Assembly (NCBI GenBank): GCA_964464605.1
Contig: CAYXJN010000003.1
Span: forward strand, 307,306-327,305
From: an uncultured Ignavibacteriales bacterium
GTDB taxonomy: Bacteria > Zixibacteria > MSB-5A5 > GN15 > FEB-12
Direction of reading: 5' to 3'
DNA: 20,000 nt
Below are positions 1 to 17,740 of the stretch, piece after piece; position 1 is the stretch's first letter, and each line of letters begins with the position of its first letter. Below the pieces are notes generated by a model. That model saw only the letters and a program-made list of their open reading frames with translations. It did no database searches and was not told the origin of the DNA. A program made the position numbers and the translations under genes.

Positions 1-523
1 TAACGCCGAAGAGCCTGAGAATAAACACGGCAACGCCGGAGAGCGCCTGCGAAATAAACGAGGTGCATTTGATAAAAATATGAATCGGCCGCGCGACAAA
101 AATCGCCCAGCTTTCCGGATGTGAAAGGGCCAGATATTTGGGAATCAATTCACCGAGCACCACCGATGCGACACTGATCGCCAGCGCCACGGAAATCATT
201 GCAATCAACCGCGCGCCATGGGCGATAAACTCAATAGATACCGTCGATAAGGTCGCTTCTAATTTACTGACTATCCCTGCGCCGCCGAATACACCGGCAA
301 GGGTACCCAAAAGCGTAATACCGACCTGGACAGTCGCAAGAAACTTTTCCGGATTTTGACTAAGCTGCTCGGCGATAGAGGCGCCGGCTTTTCCTTCCCG
401 CGCCTTTTGCCTGAGTTTGGTTTTTCGGCTGGCGATAACAGAGAATTCAGAGAGCGCAAAAAAACCATTCGCCAGTATCAAAACGACAATGGCGATGATT
501 TCGTAGGATAATCGACCCTCCAC
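1..523 (-). CDS. CNNM/DUF21 (hemolysin/CorC-like) family membrane protein, N-terminal part; runs off the left edge
   Basis: Not in the ORF track because no stop falls in the window. Manual translation from GTG at 523: MEGRLSYEIIAIVVLILANGFFALSEFSVIASRK...PEKFLATVQVGITLLGTLAG...VVLGELIPKYLAL, containing the family motifs NGFFALSE, FLATVQVGIT and GELIPK. GAGG-like SD upstream. Confidence 0.92.
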   Translation of the reverse strand, partial: MEGRLSYEIIAIVVLILANGFFALSEFSVIASRKTKLRQKAREGKAGASIAEQLSQNPEKFLATVQVGITLLGTLAGVFGGAGIVSKLEATLSTVSIEFIAHGARLIAMISVALAISVASVVLGELIPKYLALSHPESWAIFVARPIHIFIKCTSFISQALSGVAVFILRLFGV

Positions 524-577
524 CTCTTTTACCTCGCGCTGTTCGGTTGGATGTCAGCTATCAGGTATGCCGATGAA

Positions 578-1447
578 TTATCGGGCATAACCCTGCATGT
601 AGACGGCACTGGTAGCCAGTTCACGAAGACGGGCCACTCGCTTTTCCATCGGCGGGTGGGTGCTGAACAAATTGGTCAGGCCGCGACCCGAAAGCGGATT
701 GGCGATCATGAGATGCGCCGTCGCCGGATTTTCATCCAGATTCATCCGCACCGGTGCGCGATGCAGCTTTTCAAGCGCGGTGGCCAGCGGCAGATATTTA
801 CCGGTGATACGGCCTGCTGCTTCATCCGCTTTGTATTCACGTTGACGGGAAATAGCCATTTGAATAACCATCGCAATAATCGGCGCTAAGATCGCCATTA
901 CGATAAGCCCAATCGGACTCCCACCCCGCTCATCCCGATTACCGCCGCCGAAAATTGCAGCAAACTGTGCCATATGAGCAAGCATGCCGATAGCACCGGC
1001 TATCGTCGCTGCCATCGTGGCGATAAGCATATCACGATTGATAATATGACCGACTTCATGTCCGATGACCCCTTCGAGTTCATCATCGTTCAGAAGCTCT
1101 AAAATTCCTTCCGTGGCCGCAACCGCAGCATGTTCCGGATTTCGGCCGGTGGCAAATGCGTTCGGCGCCTTGGACGGAATGATGTACACTTTCGGCATCG
1201 GAATCATCGCCTTTTGCGCGACGCTTTTAGTTATCCGGTACAAACGGGGATGATCCGCTTCCTTGATCTCTTTCCCTTTGTACATGCTCAGGACAATCTT
1301 GTCCGAGAACCAGTACGACACCAAATTCATGACCGCCGCTATGACAAAGGCAATAATCATTCCGGTCTCGCGGCCAATCAAATACCCGACTGCCATAAAC
1401 AACAGCATCAGGCCGACCATAAGAACGAATGTTTTTACCGAATTCAT
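578..1447 (-). CDS. htpX: Zinc metalloprotease HtpX (peptidase M48)
   Basis: PNAFATGRNP, HEVGH (HExxH), ISRQREYKAD and FSTHPP motifs; two N-terminal TM helices. Confidence 0.97.
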   Translation of the reverse strand: MNSVKTFVLMVGLMLLFMAVGYLIGRETGMIIAFVIAAVMNLVSYWFSDKIVLSMYKGKEIKEADHPRLYRITKSVAQKAMIPMPKVYIIPSKAPNAFATGRNPEHAAVAATEGILELLNDDELEGVIGHEVGHIINRDMLIATMAATIAGAIGMLAHMAQFAAIFGGGNRDERGGSPIGLIVMAILAPIIAMVIQMAISRQREYKADEAAGRITGKYLPLATALEKLHRAPVRMNLDENPATAHLMIANPLSGRGLTNLFSTHPPMEKRVARLRELATSAVYMQGYAR

Positions 1448-1478
1448 ACGCTACTCTTTATTTCCTTTCTGTTTACCG

Positions 1479-1507
1479 ATTATACGAAAAAACCGGCTGT
1501 GCGTTGC
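1479..1507 (-). promoter_or_regulatory. Putative htpX promoter: GCAAC-N16-CGTA (ECF-like) overlapping a TATAAT -10
   Basis: The minus strand reads gcggcaac-gcacagccggtttttt-cgtataat, ~30 nt upstream of the ATG. Confidence 0.45.
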
Positions 1508-1556
1508 CGCACTCATACAATCGTTTTTTCGCGGGTAAAGTTCCCGCACAGGTTCG

Positions 1557-3563
1557 CTACTTACCCTGAGGGCGGCGTTTGCCGCGTCCGAAAGAAAGCT
1601 CTCCGGTAACTACCGATTCCTCTTCTGTATTTCCACTCGATGTCGATTCCGAGGTTGATTCACTCTTTACAAAATCCTGGCGCCGTCTGCCGCGACCGTA
1701 CGAGACTTCTCCACCATCGGTAGTTTCTTGTTCCGGAACATTCGGCCGATTTGTTTCGGAAGCGCTTGATTCTGAACCACCTTCCCGTTCAACATGTCTC
1801 GGGCGTGCAGAACGGCCATACGCGACCTGGGATGGTTCCTGTGCTTCCGGTTTATTTTCCTGTGGTGGCGTGTACCGACTTTCCGTTACTATTTCCGGCG
1901 TATGCTGAGCTACCGGTTCTTTTTCAGCAACCTCTGCGCCTGTTTCGGTAGTTTCACGTTCCTGCCGTTCACGCGGGAAACGACGGCGGTCATCACGGTT
2001 TTGGAATCGATTTGGGCGTTCTCCACCTTGAAAACGGCCGCGTCCTTGATGACGTTCACCCCGTTCGTTACGTTCACCACGCTCTTCACGATTCTCGCGT
2101 CCTTCACGCGGTTCTCTATTTTCCCGTCCCTCGCGTGAACGGAAACGGTCAGGACGATCTCCTCTTTCTTTATCACGATCTCTGCCATGACGACGTTCTT
2201 GTCCGCCGGGTGCGCTGCTGCGCTGTTCGGTTGAGCGTTCATCACGATGACGGCGTTCTCTTTGCTCCGAACCCTGATGCTGGCCGCGACGACGGTCATC
2301 CGGTCTGAATCCGGACGGACGATGCTGCGGCGTATGACGCGCTGTCTTTAAATCAAATGATCCGGCAACGACGGCTGCGGCTACGGCTGAACTCATTGTA
2401 TTGATCGGCGCAGCCAAACGGCTCATCAGCCAATCACCGCTCCAGATTACACCCAAAAGGGCGAATGCTTCTGCCGGAAAATTCAGCGCATGAAATAATC
2501 CACCCAACAACACTACCTGTGCCATCGGGAATCCAACCACACCAACCGGAATAAAAATGGCGGTAAGCGCGATAATCACATACTGCCAAATATCGAGTGA
2601 GATGCCTATTGCTTGTACAACAAACAACGTTAAAACAACAGTGAGAATCGTTGAGCCGTGTGTTCCTAAAAGCAAACCGAACGGAAGAGAAAGGCCGCTT
2701 GCACGGCTGTCATCACGCTGTTCAGAAACAGTATGAAACAGAATCGGAAATGCGGCAGTCGATGAACCGGAAGCAAACGCGGTTGCGAGCGCCGGTTTGA
2801 TATTGATCAGATATTTCAGCGGTGATTCTCCGGTCAACAGCCATTGGATTGCGGGAAGCAAAATTAATCCGAACACCCCTAACGCAATCAACAGCGTCGG
2901 TAAAACAGCTGACACAGAATCTAGCATACTCGAAAAAGATGCGGCATTTTTGGCTACGGCCGAGCCAATGATACAGAAAAGACCGATCGGTAGAATCAGA
3001 TTGATAAAATGAACAATCCGCTTCTGCAGGCCCAAAAAAATCGACAGCATATCCACAAACGGACGCCCTTTGAAACCGGCATGGATCAGCACAAGGCCGA
3101 TGGCAAAGCCGAAAAGGAGCAAACCGGCATAATAACCGCTACCGATAGAGCCCGGCAAATTGAGTGGAATGATTCCCTGCAAAATATCACCGAGGGAATG
3201 GGTGAGCGCTTCATCGAAATGCAACATCCCTGCCCCGCTGAACCAGGCGACACCTGTTCCCGGCTGTAAGATAGCGGCGAGTAACAGCGCTACCACGACG
3301 GCAACTGCACCGGTACCGAAGAAATACCAAATCAGCCGTAAAAACGAGCGACCAGCCTTGGCCATGTCGCCAAAGGAGGATACACCGACTACTATTGCCG
3401 TAAACAGTAACGGCGCTACCAACAACTGAAGCGCATGTTCAAACAGCGCTGCGGGGAATGAGGTATGAATCATTATTTGCGGAAAGAAAAGCCCGGCCAC
3501 CCAGCCGAACAGCACACCAGCCGCTACCCCTAAAATTGATCGAATCTGTAATTGATCATTCAT
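1557..3563 (-). CDS. Dicarboxylate/amino acid:cation symporter (DAACS/SDF) family protein, degenerate, with a long charged low-complexity C-terminal tail
   Basis: About 405 aa of DAACS-like membrane domain (LQLLVAPLLFTAIVVGV, QPGTG, LPIGLF, AFASGSSTAAFP), then ~260 aa rich in R/E/G/S. Confidence 0.85.
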   Translation of the reverse strand: MNDQLQIRSILGVAAGVLFGWVAGLFFPQIMIHTSFPAALFEHALQLLVAPLLFTAIVVGVSSFGDMAKAGRSFLRLIWYFFGTGAVAVVVALLLAAILQPGTGVAWFSGAGMLHFDEALTHSLGDILQGIIPLNLPGSIGSGYYAGLLLFGFAIGLVLIHAGFKGRPFVDMLSIFLGLQKRIVHFINLILPIGLFCIIGSAVAKNAASFSSMLDSVSAVLPTLLIALGVFGLILLPAIQWLLTGESPLKYLINIKPALATAFASGSSTAAFPILFHTVSEQRDDSRASGLSLPFGLLLGTHGSTILTVVLTLFVVQAIGISLDIWQYVIIALTAIFIPVGVVGFPMAQVVLLGGLFHALNFPAEAFALLGVIWSGDWLMSRLAAPINTMSSAVAAAVVAGSFDLKTARHTPQHRPSGFRPDDRRRGQHQGSEQRERRHRDERSTEQRSSAPGGQERRHGRDRDKERGDRPDRFRSREGRENREPREGRENREERGERNERGERHQGRGRFQGGERPNRFQNRDDRRRFPRERQERETTETGAEVAEKEPVAQHTPEIVTESRYTPPQENKPEAQEPSQVAYGRSARPRHVEREGGSESSASETNRPNVPEQETTDGGEVSYGRGRRRQDFVKSESTSESTSSGNTEEESVVTGELSFGRGKRRPQGK

Positions 3564-3824: not shown

Positions 3825-4448
3825 TCAGCCTGCAAAAAGCCTGCGAACCAGCATGCTCACATCAGCAATCGTGATTTTCCCGTTATGGTTCATGTCGGCA
3901 GCACCCGGGTCGGCAAGTTGTGACCCACCGCGGAAAAGGTAGCTCGTCAGCTGCGTGAGATCGGCAATGTTCACCCGGTTGTCGGAATTGACGTCACCAG
4001 AAACATGCCCGCGCAACATAATTTCACCCGGAAAGGTAAAATCCAGATTTTGGTCACACTCAGCAGTTACGGTGTAGTCATGCAGCGTACTGTCGTAGAA
4101 TGGAAGGTACCATTCAATAAAATCAAAAATCGGATAGGTCAGTTGGTAGACCTCTCCGGTGAACCCTTCGTAGCCGGGGAGTTTTGTTACAGAAGTCGGA
4201 ATGATGTTTCCGTTGATGCGGAATGTATTCGGCAGAATGGCGTTGATGTTTCCACTTTGAAGATCGCCGACGATGATCGTTCCTTCACCCAGCGGCTCAA
4301 TAGATCCGGTGTAGTATGCATACAGAAGCGTCGGAGCAATTTCTGCACGGCCGGTAACATGTTCAGTCGCAAGCAGAGTAGTACATGACATAACGAGAAT
4401 GCCGATTGCCACTACGAAATTACGGAGTCTATTAGTTACGAGGCTCAT
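3825..4448 (-). CDS. Secreted protein with C-terminal dockerin type I-like domain
   Basis: GGAG SD 6 nt before ATG 4448; signal-peptide-like N-terminus; duplicated Ca-binding repeats GDVNSDNRVNIADLTQLTSYLF and ADMNHNGKITIADVSMLVRRLF. Confidence 0.85.
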   Translation of the reverse strand: MSLVTNRLRNFVVAIGILVMSCTTLLATEHVTGRAEIAPTLLYAYYTGSIEPLGEGTIIVGDLQSGNINAILPNTFRINGNIIPTSVTKLPGYEGFTGEVYQLTYPIFDFIEWYLPFYDSTLHDYTVTAECDQNLDFTFPGEIMLRGHVSGDVNSDNRVNIADLTQLTSYLFRGGSQLADPGAADMNHNGKITIADVSMLVRRLFAG

Positions 4449-4545
4449 GATTGTCTCCATCTGTTCAAACAACCGGCGCAAAATCAAAGACGCGGGCGTG
4501 AGGCAAACCGGTCATTGCGGCTTAGTAGTACACTTTGATACCCTA

Positions 4546-4573: not shown

Positions 4574-4772
4574 GGAGATTCTTCCTGACGCACCTCCGAG
4601 CTGTGTCAGCAAATCTTAACTCCATTAGCACTTCCCAACATCATTACAGTTTGACAAATCACCTGGTATTTTGTCTATTTCATATACTGTACTATGAAAA
4701 TACGGCACCAACCGGGGTGGGAGCCGGGGGCTAATCCTGCGGAATGCAGGGTTGTATAACGGAGGAGGCATT

Positions 4773-6188
4773 ATGCTAAGAAAACAAAACCTTACACAAA
4801 TCTTTATCCTTCTGCTGCTCTTAGGGGTATGCAGAGGTGCCGGAAGGGCTTCAGGAGAAATGCCTGTCCGCTTTGGGTCTGATATTATCATCGATGAAAT
4901 CCCGCCAGATTTTCAGTCAGGATCGTTTGTGTGTCGAATCACTATCAGACCAGATTCAGGCAGTAAAATAAACCAAGTCGCTTTACACATTAAGGCTGTT
5001 GACCATCTTACCTATTCAGGTCCCTTGGATATTGTTTTATCTGCTTCACCCGCTAACCCCGCTGTTTTTGAATTGCCATTTGAAATGGTCAATTTGGATA
5101 CTGCAGGTATCAAGTATCACCTTGATATAGGTAACGGGAAATACTACTTGGATCACATGGAGCTTTATTGGATTTCCCGTGCTGATTCAGCCCAACGGTA
5201 TACTTCAAATCCGAGAGAATGGGCAAGAGTAAGATTCAAACAAGCACCGGTTGAACATAGATTTGACTATGATTCTATACAAGCTCAGTATGCTAAGATA
5301 CCAGCACAATCTATCACCGGTTTTGTTGATGACAATGGAAAGAAGATTTCCAAAGAGGAATGGAAACGCTTAAGACGCATTCAATATGGTTGGCCACCTG
5401 ACTATGAGCCACCTGATGAACGAATATGGCAATGGACGGATAAGAAAGGGCAACCTATTTTTGATGAAGCGGATTATAACCAATATTGGCTACAGGAACG
5501 TTTGAACGATCCGACCGAGATTTATGATCCGAAAGAAGATCCCAATGTCGTGATTGTGGTTGATAGTGCAACCGGTAAAGAAATGATTTACCACAAACTC
5601 TATTACCGGCGTATTCAGCAAGAAAAAGAGAATGCAATTGCGGACGCCAAACAGCAAGCCAAGATGGATAGCCTTCGCGTTCATTATGATACCTACATTG
5701 CACCTCAAAAGGCTGAGAAAGACTCCTTACATAAGCTTTTAGAAACGCCCGGCATAAATAAAGAGGAAGCCAAAAAGCAATGGAAGGAAAGAAAGCCATT
5801 GGACAAAAGAGAGATTGAGTACCATTGGGTGGACAGTGTCCTTTGGGTGAGAACATTTGGCGAATCAAAATTTAGAATTGCCGATAGGAAACCTTCTTTT
5901 AATAATACGTCGATTGATTCGTCCTTCAAGCACCCGACCTTCACAATCTGGGAAGGAGTTTTGGATTTAAGGACACAAGAAAACTTCAAGATTGCAAAAG
6001 AAATAGCGTTGACTATCAGACCCACAGATTCAACCGGATACTACTGGGTTGCTATGGACAATCAAGGCTTTAATTTATTGGTTAAAGAACGAAAGATTTC
6101 ATTTAAAAGCAAATTTGATAGTCAAATTACGAATAATAGCAGCGTCGGCGATTCATCAATATCCAAAGACAACGTAAAAAAAAAGTAA
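4773..6188 (+). CDS. Hypothetical secreted protein; N-terminal (0-frame) part of a probable frameshifted gene
   Basis: GGAGGAGG SD before ATG 4773; hydrophobic signal peptide; ends ...DNVKKK* inside an A9 run. Visibly more AT-rich than the flanks. Confidence 0.85.
   Translation: MLRKQNLTQIFILLLLLGVCRGAGRASGEMPVRFGSDIIIDEIPPDFQSGSFVCRITIRPDSGSKINQVALHIKAVDHLTYSGPLDIVLSASPANPAVFELPFEMVNLDTAGIKYHLDIGNGKYYLDHMELYWISRADSAQRYTSNPREWARVRFKQAPVEHRFDYDSIQAQYAKIPAQSITGFVDDNGKKISKEEWKRLRRIQYGWPPDYEPPDERIWQWTDKKGQPIFDEADYNQYWLQERLNDPTEIYDPKEDPNVVIVVDSATGKEMIYHKLYYRRIQQEKENAIADAKQQAKMDSLRVHYDTYIAPQKAEKDSLHKLLETPGINKEEAKKQWKERKPLDKREIEYHWVDSVLWVRTFGESKFRIADRKPSFNNTSIDSSFKHPTFTIWEGVLDLRTQENFKIAKEIALTIRPTDSTGYYWVAMDNQGFNLLVKERKISFKSKFDSQITNNSSVGDSSISKDNVKKK
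6176..6188 (+). other. Slippery site: A9 run / A_AAA_AAG heptamer immediately before the stop
   Basis: GTA AAA AAA AAG TAA; the -1 frame is open for 49 codons (6185-6331). Confidence 0.7.
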
Positions 6189-16758: not shown

Positions 16759-17073
16759 ATGGCTGCTGAGGGATTACTCTGCTGGAACTGCGGGAAACCG
16801 ACCGGTATCAAAGACCGGGTGAACCGCGCTGATAGCTGCGTCAATTGTATGGCGGATCTTCGCTGCTGCCGAGGGTGCCGTCATTTTGATCCCACCCGCC
16901 GTTTTCAATGCAAAGAACCGATTGAGGCAAATATCCCAATCAAAGACAAATCAAATTTCTGTGACTTTTTCCAGATGCGTAACGTGATGAAAACCGCCGG
17001 GGGCGTACAAATCGACACGAAAGACACCAAAGACTCCCGCAAAAAACGGTTTGATGATTTGTTTGAGGATTGA
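16759..17073 (+). CDS. Small Cys-rich, probable Zn-binding hypothetical protein
   Basis: CxxC, CxxC, CCxxC and two more Cys (9 in total), with a NFCDFF motif. Confidence 0.8.
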   Translation: MAAEGLLCWNCGKPTGIKDRVNRADSCVNCMADLRCCRGCRHFDPTRRFQCKEPIEANIPIKDKSNFCDFFQMRNVMKTAGGVQIDTKDTKDSRKKRFDDLFED

Positions 17074-17173
17074 GAATAAAGTAGGAGACAAAAACTATTG
17101 ACTAAACATTATGAAGTTATATCTTTTCAGTTGTTATTGAATTAACGAACAATTGTTTTACGTCGGGGTGCTT

Positions 17174-17740
17174 ATGATCAAAGCTGGATTCCTAGTTCTT
17201 ATTCTTACATTAACATTGACTCCTGTTTTTGCAGCAGATGTAACTGTTAAACATGACGACTTCTACCAAACCACTATCTATGACATGACAAATAATAACC
17301 TATCTGGCTCTGGATTACTGAGCTCCAAATTGTCTCTTCAAGCTCGATCGGTTCTATTCGACGATACAACGAAACAACCACTTCACTTTCTAATATTAAA
17401 ATATACCAATGTAGATTGGCTCTTTATCGAGAAAATGATTATTAAAATTGATGGAGAGATTATTAGGCTCAATCATTCTGGCACTCCTAATAGACAAGTC
17501 CAAGGTGGAGGAAAGATTCAAGAAATTATCTTCTTTGACACTGAATTGGATTTCTTGGATAGAATTGCTAACGCACAAGAAATAGAAGTTAGAGCAGAAG
17601 GCCATCAATACTATACTGACAAAAAATTCAAAAAAGCAAATTTTGATAATTTCAAAAAATTCGTAGAGAAAGTTCAGATCGGCGTTGCACAAAAGGAAAA
17701 TAATTCCGATTCGATAAGCTCAAAAGAAGAGGGGGAATAG
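17174..17740 (+). CDS. Hypothetical secreted protein, AT-rich
   Basis: GGGGTG SD before ATG 17174; signal peptide ending VFA; upstream TTGACT-16-TATCTT (17098-17125). Confidence 0.8.
   Translation: MIKAGFLVLILTLTLTPVFAADVTVKHDDFYQTTIYDMTNNNLSGSGLLSSKLSLQARSVLFDDTTKQPLHFLILKYTNVDWLFIEKMIIKIDGEIIRLNHSGTPNRQVQGGGKIQEIIFFDTELDFLDRIANAQEIEVRAEGHQYYTDKKFKKANFDNFKKFVEKVQIGVAQKENNSDSISSKEEGE

Follow-up and report, generated by a model that had tools for sequence, protein, structure and literature searches.

Carriers of the DAACS/SLC1 fold (GltPh, GltP, DctA and the EAATs) are trimeric in the solved homologues, and the topology of GltPh puts the C-terminus in the cytoplasm. Here, we analyzed a stretch of 20,000 nucleotides from a genome of the Zixibacteria (contig CAYXJN010000003.1, positions 307,306 to 327,305; this whole stretch is referred to as the window), in which a gene on the reverse strand encodes a 668-aa protein that joins a DAACS membrane domain to a long charged tail. 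The protein resembles the described carriers in its full-length membrane domain, judged by sequence, in its predicted helical architecture, in the motif SGSST and in the Asn of transmembrane helix 8 (TM8). However, it differs from them by a disordered tail of 264 aa and by the replacement of NMDGT and of the Asp, Arg, Thr and Asp in TM8.

On RNase E and on eukaryotic carriers, long and conserved disordered tails that end in docking peptides are a familiar feature; we found none reported for a bacterial DAACS protein. The C-terminal scaffold of RNase E (degradosome, bacterial ribonucleoprotein body) is likewise a long, disordered, membrane-attached region, with Arg-rich and acidic blocks and with short conserved peptides alternating with linkers. 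However, the tailed DAACS proteins have neither the RNase E/G catalytic domain (PF10150) nor homology to RNase E, and their anchor is a polytopic transporter fold and not an amphipathic helix. The C-terminal extensions of RhlE-type DEAD-box helicases share basic disordered ends closing in [FY]GR and K/R clusters, whereas the tailed DAACS proteins lack the DEAD and Helicase_C domains and have a tail that is 3-5 times longer, with acidic spacers. The YidC/Oxa1/Alb3 insertases offer a precedent for a polytopic membrane protein whose positively charged cytoplasmic C-tail contacts the ribosome; they have another fold, much shorter tails, no acidic spacer and no [FYW]GR, and for the tailed DAACS proteins we only infer such a ribosome contact. 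Eukaryotic EAAT and ASCT proteins carry C-tails of tens of residues with PDZ-type ligand ends on active carriers. They share the fold and a C-terminal cytoplasmic extension closing in a short docking peptide, whereas the tailed DAACS proteins are bacterial, end in another motif and include copies with a decayed site. Full-text literature searches returned no paper combining Zixibacteria with "intrinsically disordered", and none combining DAACS, C-terminal, disordered and bacteria. What appears to be newly seen here is a DAACS subfamily whose hallmark is a conserved disordered tail that has docking peptides at its end, together with a lineage in which the carrier domain seems to be decaying into an anchor.

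The tailed protein and its distribution

The gene comprises the following features, given in window coordinates.

1557..3563 (-): tailed DAACS/SLC1-fold protein (P0001), a single open reading frame (ORF) with an ATG start, 668 aa plus stop
2364..3542 (-): sodium:dicarboxylate symporter domain SDF (PF00375), residues 8-400 (Pfam, E 4e-63)
2652..2666 (-): GTHGS instead of NMDGT in TM7, residues 300-304 (alignment to EAAT1, family alignment)
2388..2435 (-): TM8 stretch DWLMSRLAAPINTMSS instead of DWLLDRFRTMVNVLGD, residues 377-392 (alignment to EAAT1, family alignment)
1560..2351 (-): intrinsically disordered tail, residues 405-668 (264 aa; AlphaFold2 confidence score pLDDT and composition), predicted to lie on the cytoplasmic side
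1944..2348 (-): juxtamembrane KTAR, then an Arg-rich mixed-charge block (rich in RD/RE/RG, net positive), residues 406-540 (charge profile)
1797..1829 (-): motif copy 1, QVAYGRSARPR, residues 579-589 (translation)
1680..1709 (-): motif copy 2, EVSYGRGRRR, residues 619-628, corresponding to the penultimate motif of the family, [YFW]GR[ST][RK]SR[RK]G
1560..1601 (-): terminal motif ELSFGRGKRRPQGK-COOH, residues 655-668, [FYW]GR with a polybasic C-terminus (conservation, shuffles)

Judged from its profile matches, the 668-aa protein is a full-length member of DAACS/SLC1 (PF00375). The Pfam profile scored 214 bits (gathering score 27.9) and was covered from position 4 to 385 of 387; the scan found no other domain at E <= 0.01. 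A sequence search of the PDB aligned residues 5-401 with chains of EAAT1, EAAT3, GltPh and GltTk (E 1e-33 to 1e-24; EAAT1, EAAT3 and GltPh at 1e-33 to 1e-27). AlphaFold2, run on an alignment of 28 sequences, placed residues 1-407 with confidence (blocks mostly at pLDDT 80-95, loop 108-140 excepted); the membrane domain is predicted to be all-helical and aligns end to end in sequence with the solved GltPh and EAAT chains. In the NCBIfam models the protein reached 114.7 bits for the DctA subfamily (cut-off 513), 86.8 for GltP (638) and 60.2 for SstT (308), which is about half the score of canonical forms and far under every curated cut-off. A 157-nt metatranscriptome contig from one run of a biofilm library is identical to window positions 2461-2617, a part of the membrane domain. 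It is too short for claiming expression of the gene or of the tail, and the tail lies outside the covered part.

The original prediction, made from the sequence alone, had described an RNase E/Rho-like charged tail of ~260 aa with a thrice-repeated [YF]GR motif behind the DAACS domain. A tail of 264 aa does follow TM8 within one 668-aa ORF, all quoted strings are present in the translation (REGRENREPREGRENREERGERNERGER at residues 477-504, GRGRFQGG at 507-514), and the three copies of [FWY]GR compare with 0.22 expected in 20,000 composition-preserving shuffles (P = 0.0007). The likeness to RNase E and Rho, however, proved to be one of composition, without homology. The tail is rich in R (21%), E (16%) and G (11%), and its part from residue 545 to 668 is net acidic with three basic islands at Y582-G-R, Y622-G-R and F658-G-R. 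AlphaFold2 gave pLDDT values below 50 and no confident secondary structure for residues 413-668, and no hydrophobic segment is present in the tail. Given the topology of the GltPh fold and the Arg content, the tail would lie on the cytoplasmic side. A tandem-repeat origin of the RE/RG block was ruled out, as Tandem Repeats Finder detected no DNA-level tandem repeat.

In an ORF scan of the genome, the longest charged low-hydrophobicity stretch was the tail of the 668-aa protein. The only other ORFs with charged low-hydrophobicity stretches of 100 aa are located at C2:190972-191955 (-), C2:127885-129444 (-), C4:37403-38200 (+) and C5:117977-118498 (-), and include poly-Q/Gly-rich and Lys/Ala-rich (histone-H1-like) segments.

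A stretch of 2.3 kb was recovered with zero differences in single contigs from the runs of three studies (labels: bioreactor, activated sludge, aquaculture). The assembly itself may derive from any of these studies, and the exact 668-aa protein is recorded from 11 contigs. With identical contigs in three studies and the tail retained across the order, read-through and misassembly were ruled out. Among 41 related genomes, 39 gave a match; nearly all have a form whose open frame spans 600-900 aa, and in many of them a form of ~410-470 aa occurs besides. Conservation of the tail, which the original prediction had left open, is seen in the 32 long forms extracted (L001-L032): none stops after TM8, and their tails of 207-472 aa are rich in R/K/E/D/S/T/P and barely alignable. 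At the level of the phylum we sampled 151 genomes, where the same order comprises four families (f1-f4); among the matches listed, an open frame of at least 600 aa (600-930 aa) occurred in 70/83 genomes of the order and in 0/68 genomes of other orders.

The assumption that bacterial DAACS proteins normally end soon after TM8 was borne out by the 80 nearest canonical DAACS loci in a collection of species-representative genomes. Here, 78/80 leave <= 29 residues past the domain, a count that includes one frame cut by the end of its locus and one broken frame. Of the other two loci, the first has a tail of 60 residues and the second (L053) a tail of 284 residues ending in DFWGRDKKKRPSR. This sole long-tailed locus belongs to Candidatus Zixiibacteriota; none of the 80 loci has a long tail outside Zixibacteria. 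The NCBI names of the tailed homologues P0021, P0025, P0027 and P0031 are Zixibacteria as well. Based on the genome counts, the nearest DAACS loci and these names, the tail is, in the genomes searched, a trait of one order of Zixibacteria.

One tailed orthologue (L004; G001, 880-1420 (-)) shows a single in-frame stop within the tail. Past it, the same frame continues for ~150 codons with a helix motif, PVYGRPRTRR and the terminal VSFGRPSRRRTRR-stop. The stop could be a sequencing error, the mark of a recent pseudogene or a site of stop read-through.

Conservation of the terminal peptide

In nearly all orthologues, the C-terminus reads x[ST][FW]GRxK[KR]K[KR]xx, which extends to [FY][ST]xExx[ST]FGRxKRKR in f1. 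The penultimate motif, [YFW]GR[ST][RK]SR[RK]G, sits ~40 residues upstream, with G25 and R26 invariant in 16/16 sequences (alignment A3). Few columns in an alignment of 28 tailed proteins reach >= 90% conservation, and G659 and R660 belong to them. A strict pattern, defined as [FWY]GR within the last 16 residues followed by at least three K/R, was matched by 27/32 tailed orthologues, while 1,000 shuffles of the tails gave a mean of 0.006 and a maximum of 1. In total, the 32 tails contain 57 [FWY]GR against 2.5 expected from the shuffles. The five misses are L008 (FGGRGRKRK), L022 and L026 (RFGRSxRRG), L014, whose frame is cut short by the contig end, and L004 with its in-frame stop. Counting the variants and L004, the alignments place the terminal peptide in essentially every complete orthologue, whereas the remainder of the tail varies freely. 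The original prediction had proposed the [YF]GR motif for docking; the motif is conserved, most of all in this terminal copy, and has the character of a short linear motif for docking.

The Arg-rich mixed-charge block recurs in the orthologues by composition and not by sequence. Most orthologues carry two motif copies, and copy 1 is peculiar to the window protein. As judged from the alignments, these tails are built like a scaffold, in which a variable disordered string bears short conserved peptides. The f3 tails (L007, L009, L011, L015, L020, L027) have conserved internal peptides of their own, such as FEVPKFPxxILDDL, DFSxLDxAVLG and an internal TFGRKRxRP, which are missing from f1.

To define the module, a profile was built from the last 70 residues of 16 sequences including the window protein, which for this reason scores E 6.9e-7 by construction. 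A word-indexed search of 5.8 billion proteins gave 19 matches, 18 of them with PF00375 (the window protein among them). The 19th (P0023, a public metagenome protein of 338 aa) is a fragment of a tailed DAACS protein at a contig end, beginning in TM8. One source labels it "ribonuclease E", presumably owing to its composition; its sequence gives that label no support. An exhaustive search of 1.84 billion cluster representatives gave 114 matches at E <= 0.001. Besides the window protein, these are 60 proteins with a full SDF domain (tails of 230-485 aa), eight with a partial one and 45 short tail-only pieces, the domain being screened by local phmmer and the short pieces being judged as tail fragments by eye. 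[FWY]G(G)R falls within the last 16 residues of 112/113 matches; in P0259, probably a spurious match, the module is not C-terminal. Neither search placed the two-motif module in another domain context or on a helicase, the new matches of the exhaustive search being screened for SDF only. With its SDF domain, a tail of at least 200 aa and a C-terminal [FYW]GR-polybasic peptide, the window protein fits the tailed-DAACS family. At the level of these comparisons, strong selection on the terminal peptide is firmly shown, and so is the tail as a real, order-wide, disordered extension, predicted to be cytoplasmic.

Of the 9,359 six-frame ORFs (>= 80 aa) of this genome, three have a C-terminal [FWY]GR followed by at least three K/R. 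The proteome scan, which the original prediction had suggested, thus located the terminal peptide, apart from the tailed DAACS protein, only on ribosomal protein S9 and on a 441-aa RhlE-like DEAD-box helicase (L133, C1:166943-168265 (-)), which ends in HFGRANKRRGPRGFGKR after a disordered Pro/Ser/Arg stretch. Among the helicases of the relatives, [FY]GR with a basic cluster closes 9/26 loci, which represent two paralogue groups (e.g. PSFGRKRTASTRKRRL), and the remaining loci have endings of the types GFRWRKRR or FWxxFKKKR (FWxxFKKKRxxKKKSxGQGxxRKKR) or purely basic runs. This suggests that the RhlE-like helicases of the order (L133, L134-L158) carry lineage-specific tail peptides. In a public collection, [FWY]GR falls within the final 25 residues of 42 of the 120 nearest helicase homologues (1.3 expected). 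The RNase E/G-family gene of the genome (PF10150, on C1) lies in a frame of 519 aa, too short for a long scaffold region, and the gene for RNase Y in one of 529 aa; a long scaffold of the RNase E type is not evident.

Transport site and family history

In TM8 of the window protein, the site residues are replaced (D->S, R->A, T->A and the final D->S) and the Asn is kept; the family alignment shows that the Ser-rich motif SGSST of helical hairpin 1 (HP1) is retained, too. We take the TM8 residues to have the substrate and cation roles, and NMDGT the cation role, known from the literature on GltPh and the EAATs. NMDGT is kept in 0/20 tailed f1 copies, in 11/13 tailed copies of f2-f4 and in 14/14 short f1 paralogues. 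The same 11/13 copies also keep DRCRTTVNVWGD, and the 14 short f1 paralogues are all canonical. Among the 20 tailed f1 copies, the TM8 Asp is kept in 13 and the Arg in 13; the window protein has lost both (GTHGS, SRLAAPINTMSS) and is, in this alignment, the most degenerate tailed copy. The original prediction had coupled the tail to a degenerate transport site. The two do occur together in the window protein, where NMDGT reads GTHGS and the TM8 site residues are replaced, but under the tails of three of the four families the motifs are canonical, and the decay came later and only in the f1 duplicate.

A quick IQ-TREE phylogeny, with support from the Shimodaira–Hasegawa-like approximate likelihood ratio test (SH-aLRT), united all tailed forms and the short f1 paralogues in one clade (support 96). 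The tailed f1 copies form a clade with P0002 (99) on long branches, and the window protein has the longest branch in it (2.57; the median end branch is 0.31). The short f1 paralogues form a clade (95) grouped with the tailed forms of f4 (92) and are nested among tailed forms. The genome studied here (G000, rated 100% complete) yielded no short canonical paralogue; apart from the tailed copy, it holds only a distant member of the subfamily at C3:142239-143462.

On the simplest reading of the tree, the tail would be ancestral to the order and would at first have been attached to a working transporter. In f1, again on the simplest reading, a second copy would then have been gained, in which the tail disappeared and transport was preserved; selection on transport, though not on the tail, would have been lifted from the tailed copy. 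The tail and its motif are kept in 20/20 copies with decayed transport motifs, which argues that the tail is selected without canonical transport; the alignments firmly show that its conservation is independent of the canonical transport residues. Since the window copy is the most decayed one and no canonical short paralogue was found in the genome, its membrane domain probably serves mainly as an anchor. Public annotation gives the tailed genes plainly as "cation:dicarboxylate symporter" and one fragment as "ribonuclease E", labels that are likely misleading for the decayed copies and for P0023.

Gene neighbourhood and possible roles of the tail

Downstream of the tailed gene, the window contains two further genes of a conserved row.

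578..1447 (-): htpX, M48 zinc metalloprotease (Pfam PF01435; NCBIfam equivalog NF002826, 376.6 bits, cut-off 369)
2..523 (-): 5' part of a CNNM/CorC-type (DUF21-CBS-CorC) gene, the third of the row (Pfam CNNM, E 1.5e-34)

In the window, htpX starts 110 nt past the DAACS stop on the same strand, and no terminator-like site was found in this gap (1448-1556). It lies directly downstream, on the same strand, in 27/32 tailed-DAACS loci from all four families, with gaps of 41-477 nt in 26 loci and of 1,068 nt in L029. The CNNM-CBS-CorC gene, of which a full-length orthologue combines CNNM, CBS and CorC_HlyC, follows htpX in 16/32 loci (many loci end earlier), and a K+ channel gene (Ion_trans_2 with TrkA_N/C) stands upstream in ten. 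Altogether, the row K+ channel, tailed DAACS, HtpX and CNNM/CBS/CorC is conserved across the four families (window 2..3563 (-), L002-L032). Around untailed DAACS genes of other orders, htpX, CNNM/CorC and the K+ channel were found within 3 kb in 0/12 cases.

Directly upstream of the DAACS gene, the window encodes a 220-aa protein with a type I dockerin (3825..4487 (-), E 1.8e-12); dockerin-bearing proteins are also located upstream in two orthologous loci. The 478-aa ORF beside it (4752..6188 (+)) has no Pfam match. Farther away, the GC content drops to 0.356 at 17001..17500 (~0.48 for the window), close to a 195-aa ORF (17153..17740) without Pfam match.

As to the function of the tail, our preferred, if tentative, reading is an arm tethered to the membrane that would bind RNA or a ribonucleoprotein (RNP). 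It is favored by a peptide type that is common to RNA-binding proteins of the lineage, together with the Arg-rich mixed-charge block next to the membrane. The original prediction had suggested a membrane anchor for RNA or RNP condensates; the terminal peptide type on RhlE-like helicases and S9 lends this idea circumstantial support. The tail starts with the Arg-rich block and continues with acidic Ser/Thr/Glu spacers holding two or three [FYW]GR + K/R peptides. Hanging into the cytoplasm, with three tails per trimer, it would dock multivalently to a polyanionic partner, most likely RNA or an RNP such as the ribosome, and its contact peptide would match the type found at the ends of RhlE-like DEAD-box helicases in the lineage. 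Such a tail may first have sat on a working transporter; after the duplication in f1, the short copy would have kept transport and the tailed copy would have lost cation and substrate residues, leaving a membrane domain that in this genome may mainly anchor the tail. A more far-reaching and rather doubtful version sees the transporter fold as a trimeric anchor for a scaffold resembling the RNase E C-terminal domain, where RNA, ribosomes or substrates of the RhlE-type helicase would be captured via the terminal peptide to form a membrane-tethered RNP hub or condensate, possibly with HtpX-controlled turnover.

Several observations weigh against RNA or RNP binding. The conserved neighbours, HtpX, CNNM/CorC and the K+ channel, belong to membrane homeostasis, and no RNA-metabolism gene is among them. 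The coincidence of the peptide within the genome rests on three proteins, and roughly two thirds of the helicase homologues lack the motif. An aromatic residue with a polybasic cluster also binds anionic lipids, DNA and polyphosphate, and the extended f1 conservation ([FY][ST]xExx[ST]FGRxKRKR) is more suggestive of a peptide that docks to a specific protein than of non-specific electrostatic contacts. The window protein, moreover, lacks both SPF[QEAD] and a helix like TIERERAKIAAQLAxMKEKE, which most f1 orthologues keep. Finally, in three of the four families a canonical transporter carries the tail, so that its primary role could be the regulation of transport.

The last point leads to an alternative that is on the whole unlikely, yet deserves to be taken seriously. 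A regulatory tail would recruit a regulatory or localising protein or fold onto the cytoplasmic face. Like the C-tails of eukaryotic EAATs, it would in this way govern the activity of the carrier, its clustering or its turnover, and the copy in this genome would be either a sensor that has lost transport or a remnant. The ancestral occurrence on canonical transporters (11/13 tailed f2-f4 copies with NMDGT and DRCRTTVNVWGD) fits this idea, as do the position-specific conservation extending around the terminal motif, which is compatible with a protein-peptide contact, and the ion-transport and membrane-homeostasis genes conserved nearby. The persistence of tail and motif in all 20 copies with decayed transport motifs speaks against it, however, and AlphaFold2 leaves the peptide undocked on the membrane domain, with pLDDT < 50 nearly throughout the tail. 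Binding of anionic lipids, with the tail looped back to the membrane, or an AT-hook-like binding of DNA as a nucleoid tether seems distinctly unlikely to us. Clusters of aromatic and Lys/Arg residues do bind membrane surfaces, GR-rich peptides bind nucleic-acid grooves, and WGRPKRK in some orthologues comes near the AT-hook core; but the three motifs of the window protein lack the GRP core, no Pfam AT-hook was found at E <= 0.01, and the other carriers of the terminal motif in the genome are RNA-binding and not membrane or DNA proteins. Furthermore, a membrane-binding peptide would have no obvious use on an integral protein.

HtpX cuts cytoplasmic parts of membrane proteins, and the tail could be its handle or cleavage substrate (perhaps together with FtsH), by which the arm is released or destroyed, or the protease titrated. 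The position of htpX directly downstream in 27/32 tailed loci, its presence within 3 kb of 0/12 untailed DAACS genes and the 110-nt gap without a terminator-like site point in this direction. This evidence is nevertheless synteny only, going back to a single ancestral arrangement and thus to one event, and 200-470 residues bearing conserved terminal peptides are more than a degron requires; we consider a proteolytic role improbable. Hardly credible is a tail that results from read-through or chimeric assembly or represents a functionless, neutral low-complexity expansion. The low-complexity, fast-evolving sequence and the in-frame stop of L004 would suit such an origin, but identical contigs come from three studies and the order retains the tail, the terminal motif persists where shuffled tails would yield 0.006 in 32, and both motifs remain in frame past the L004 stop.

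The tailed DAACS family represents a natural experiment, as the same tail is found on working transporters in three families and, after a duplication, on a progressively decaying domain in the fourth. Its occurrence on canonical and decaying domains alike implies that the function of the tail is separable from transport. If the tail does bind RNA or ribosomes, it would constitute a new bacterial way to organise RNA biology at the membrane, and would provide a case of a transporter fold recruited for anchoring alone.

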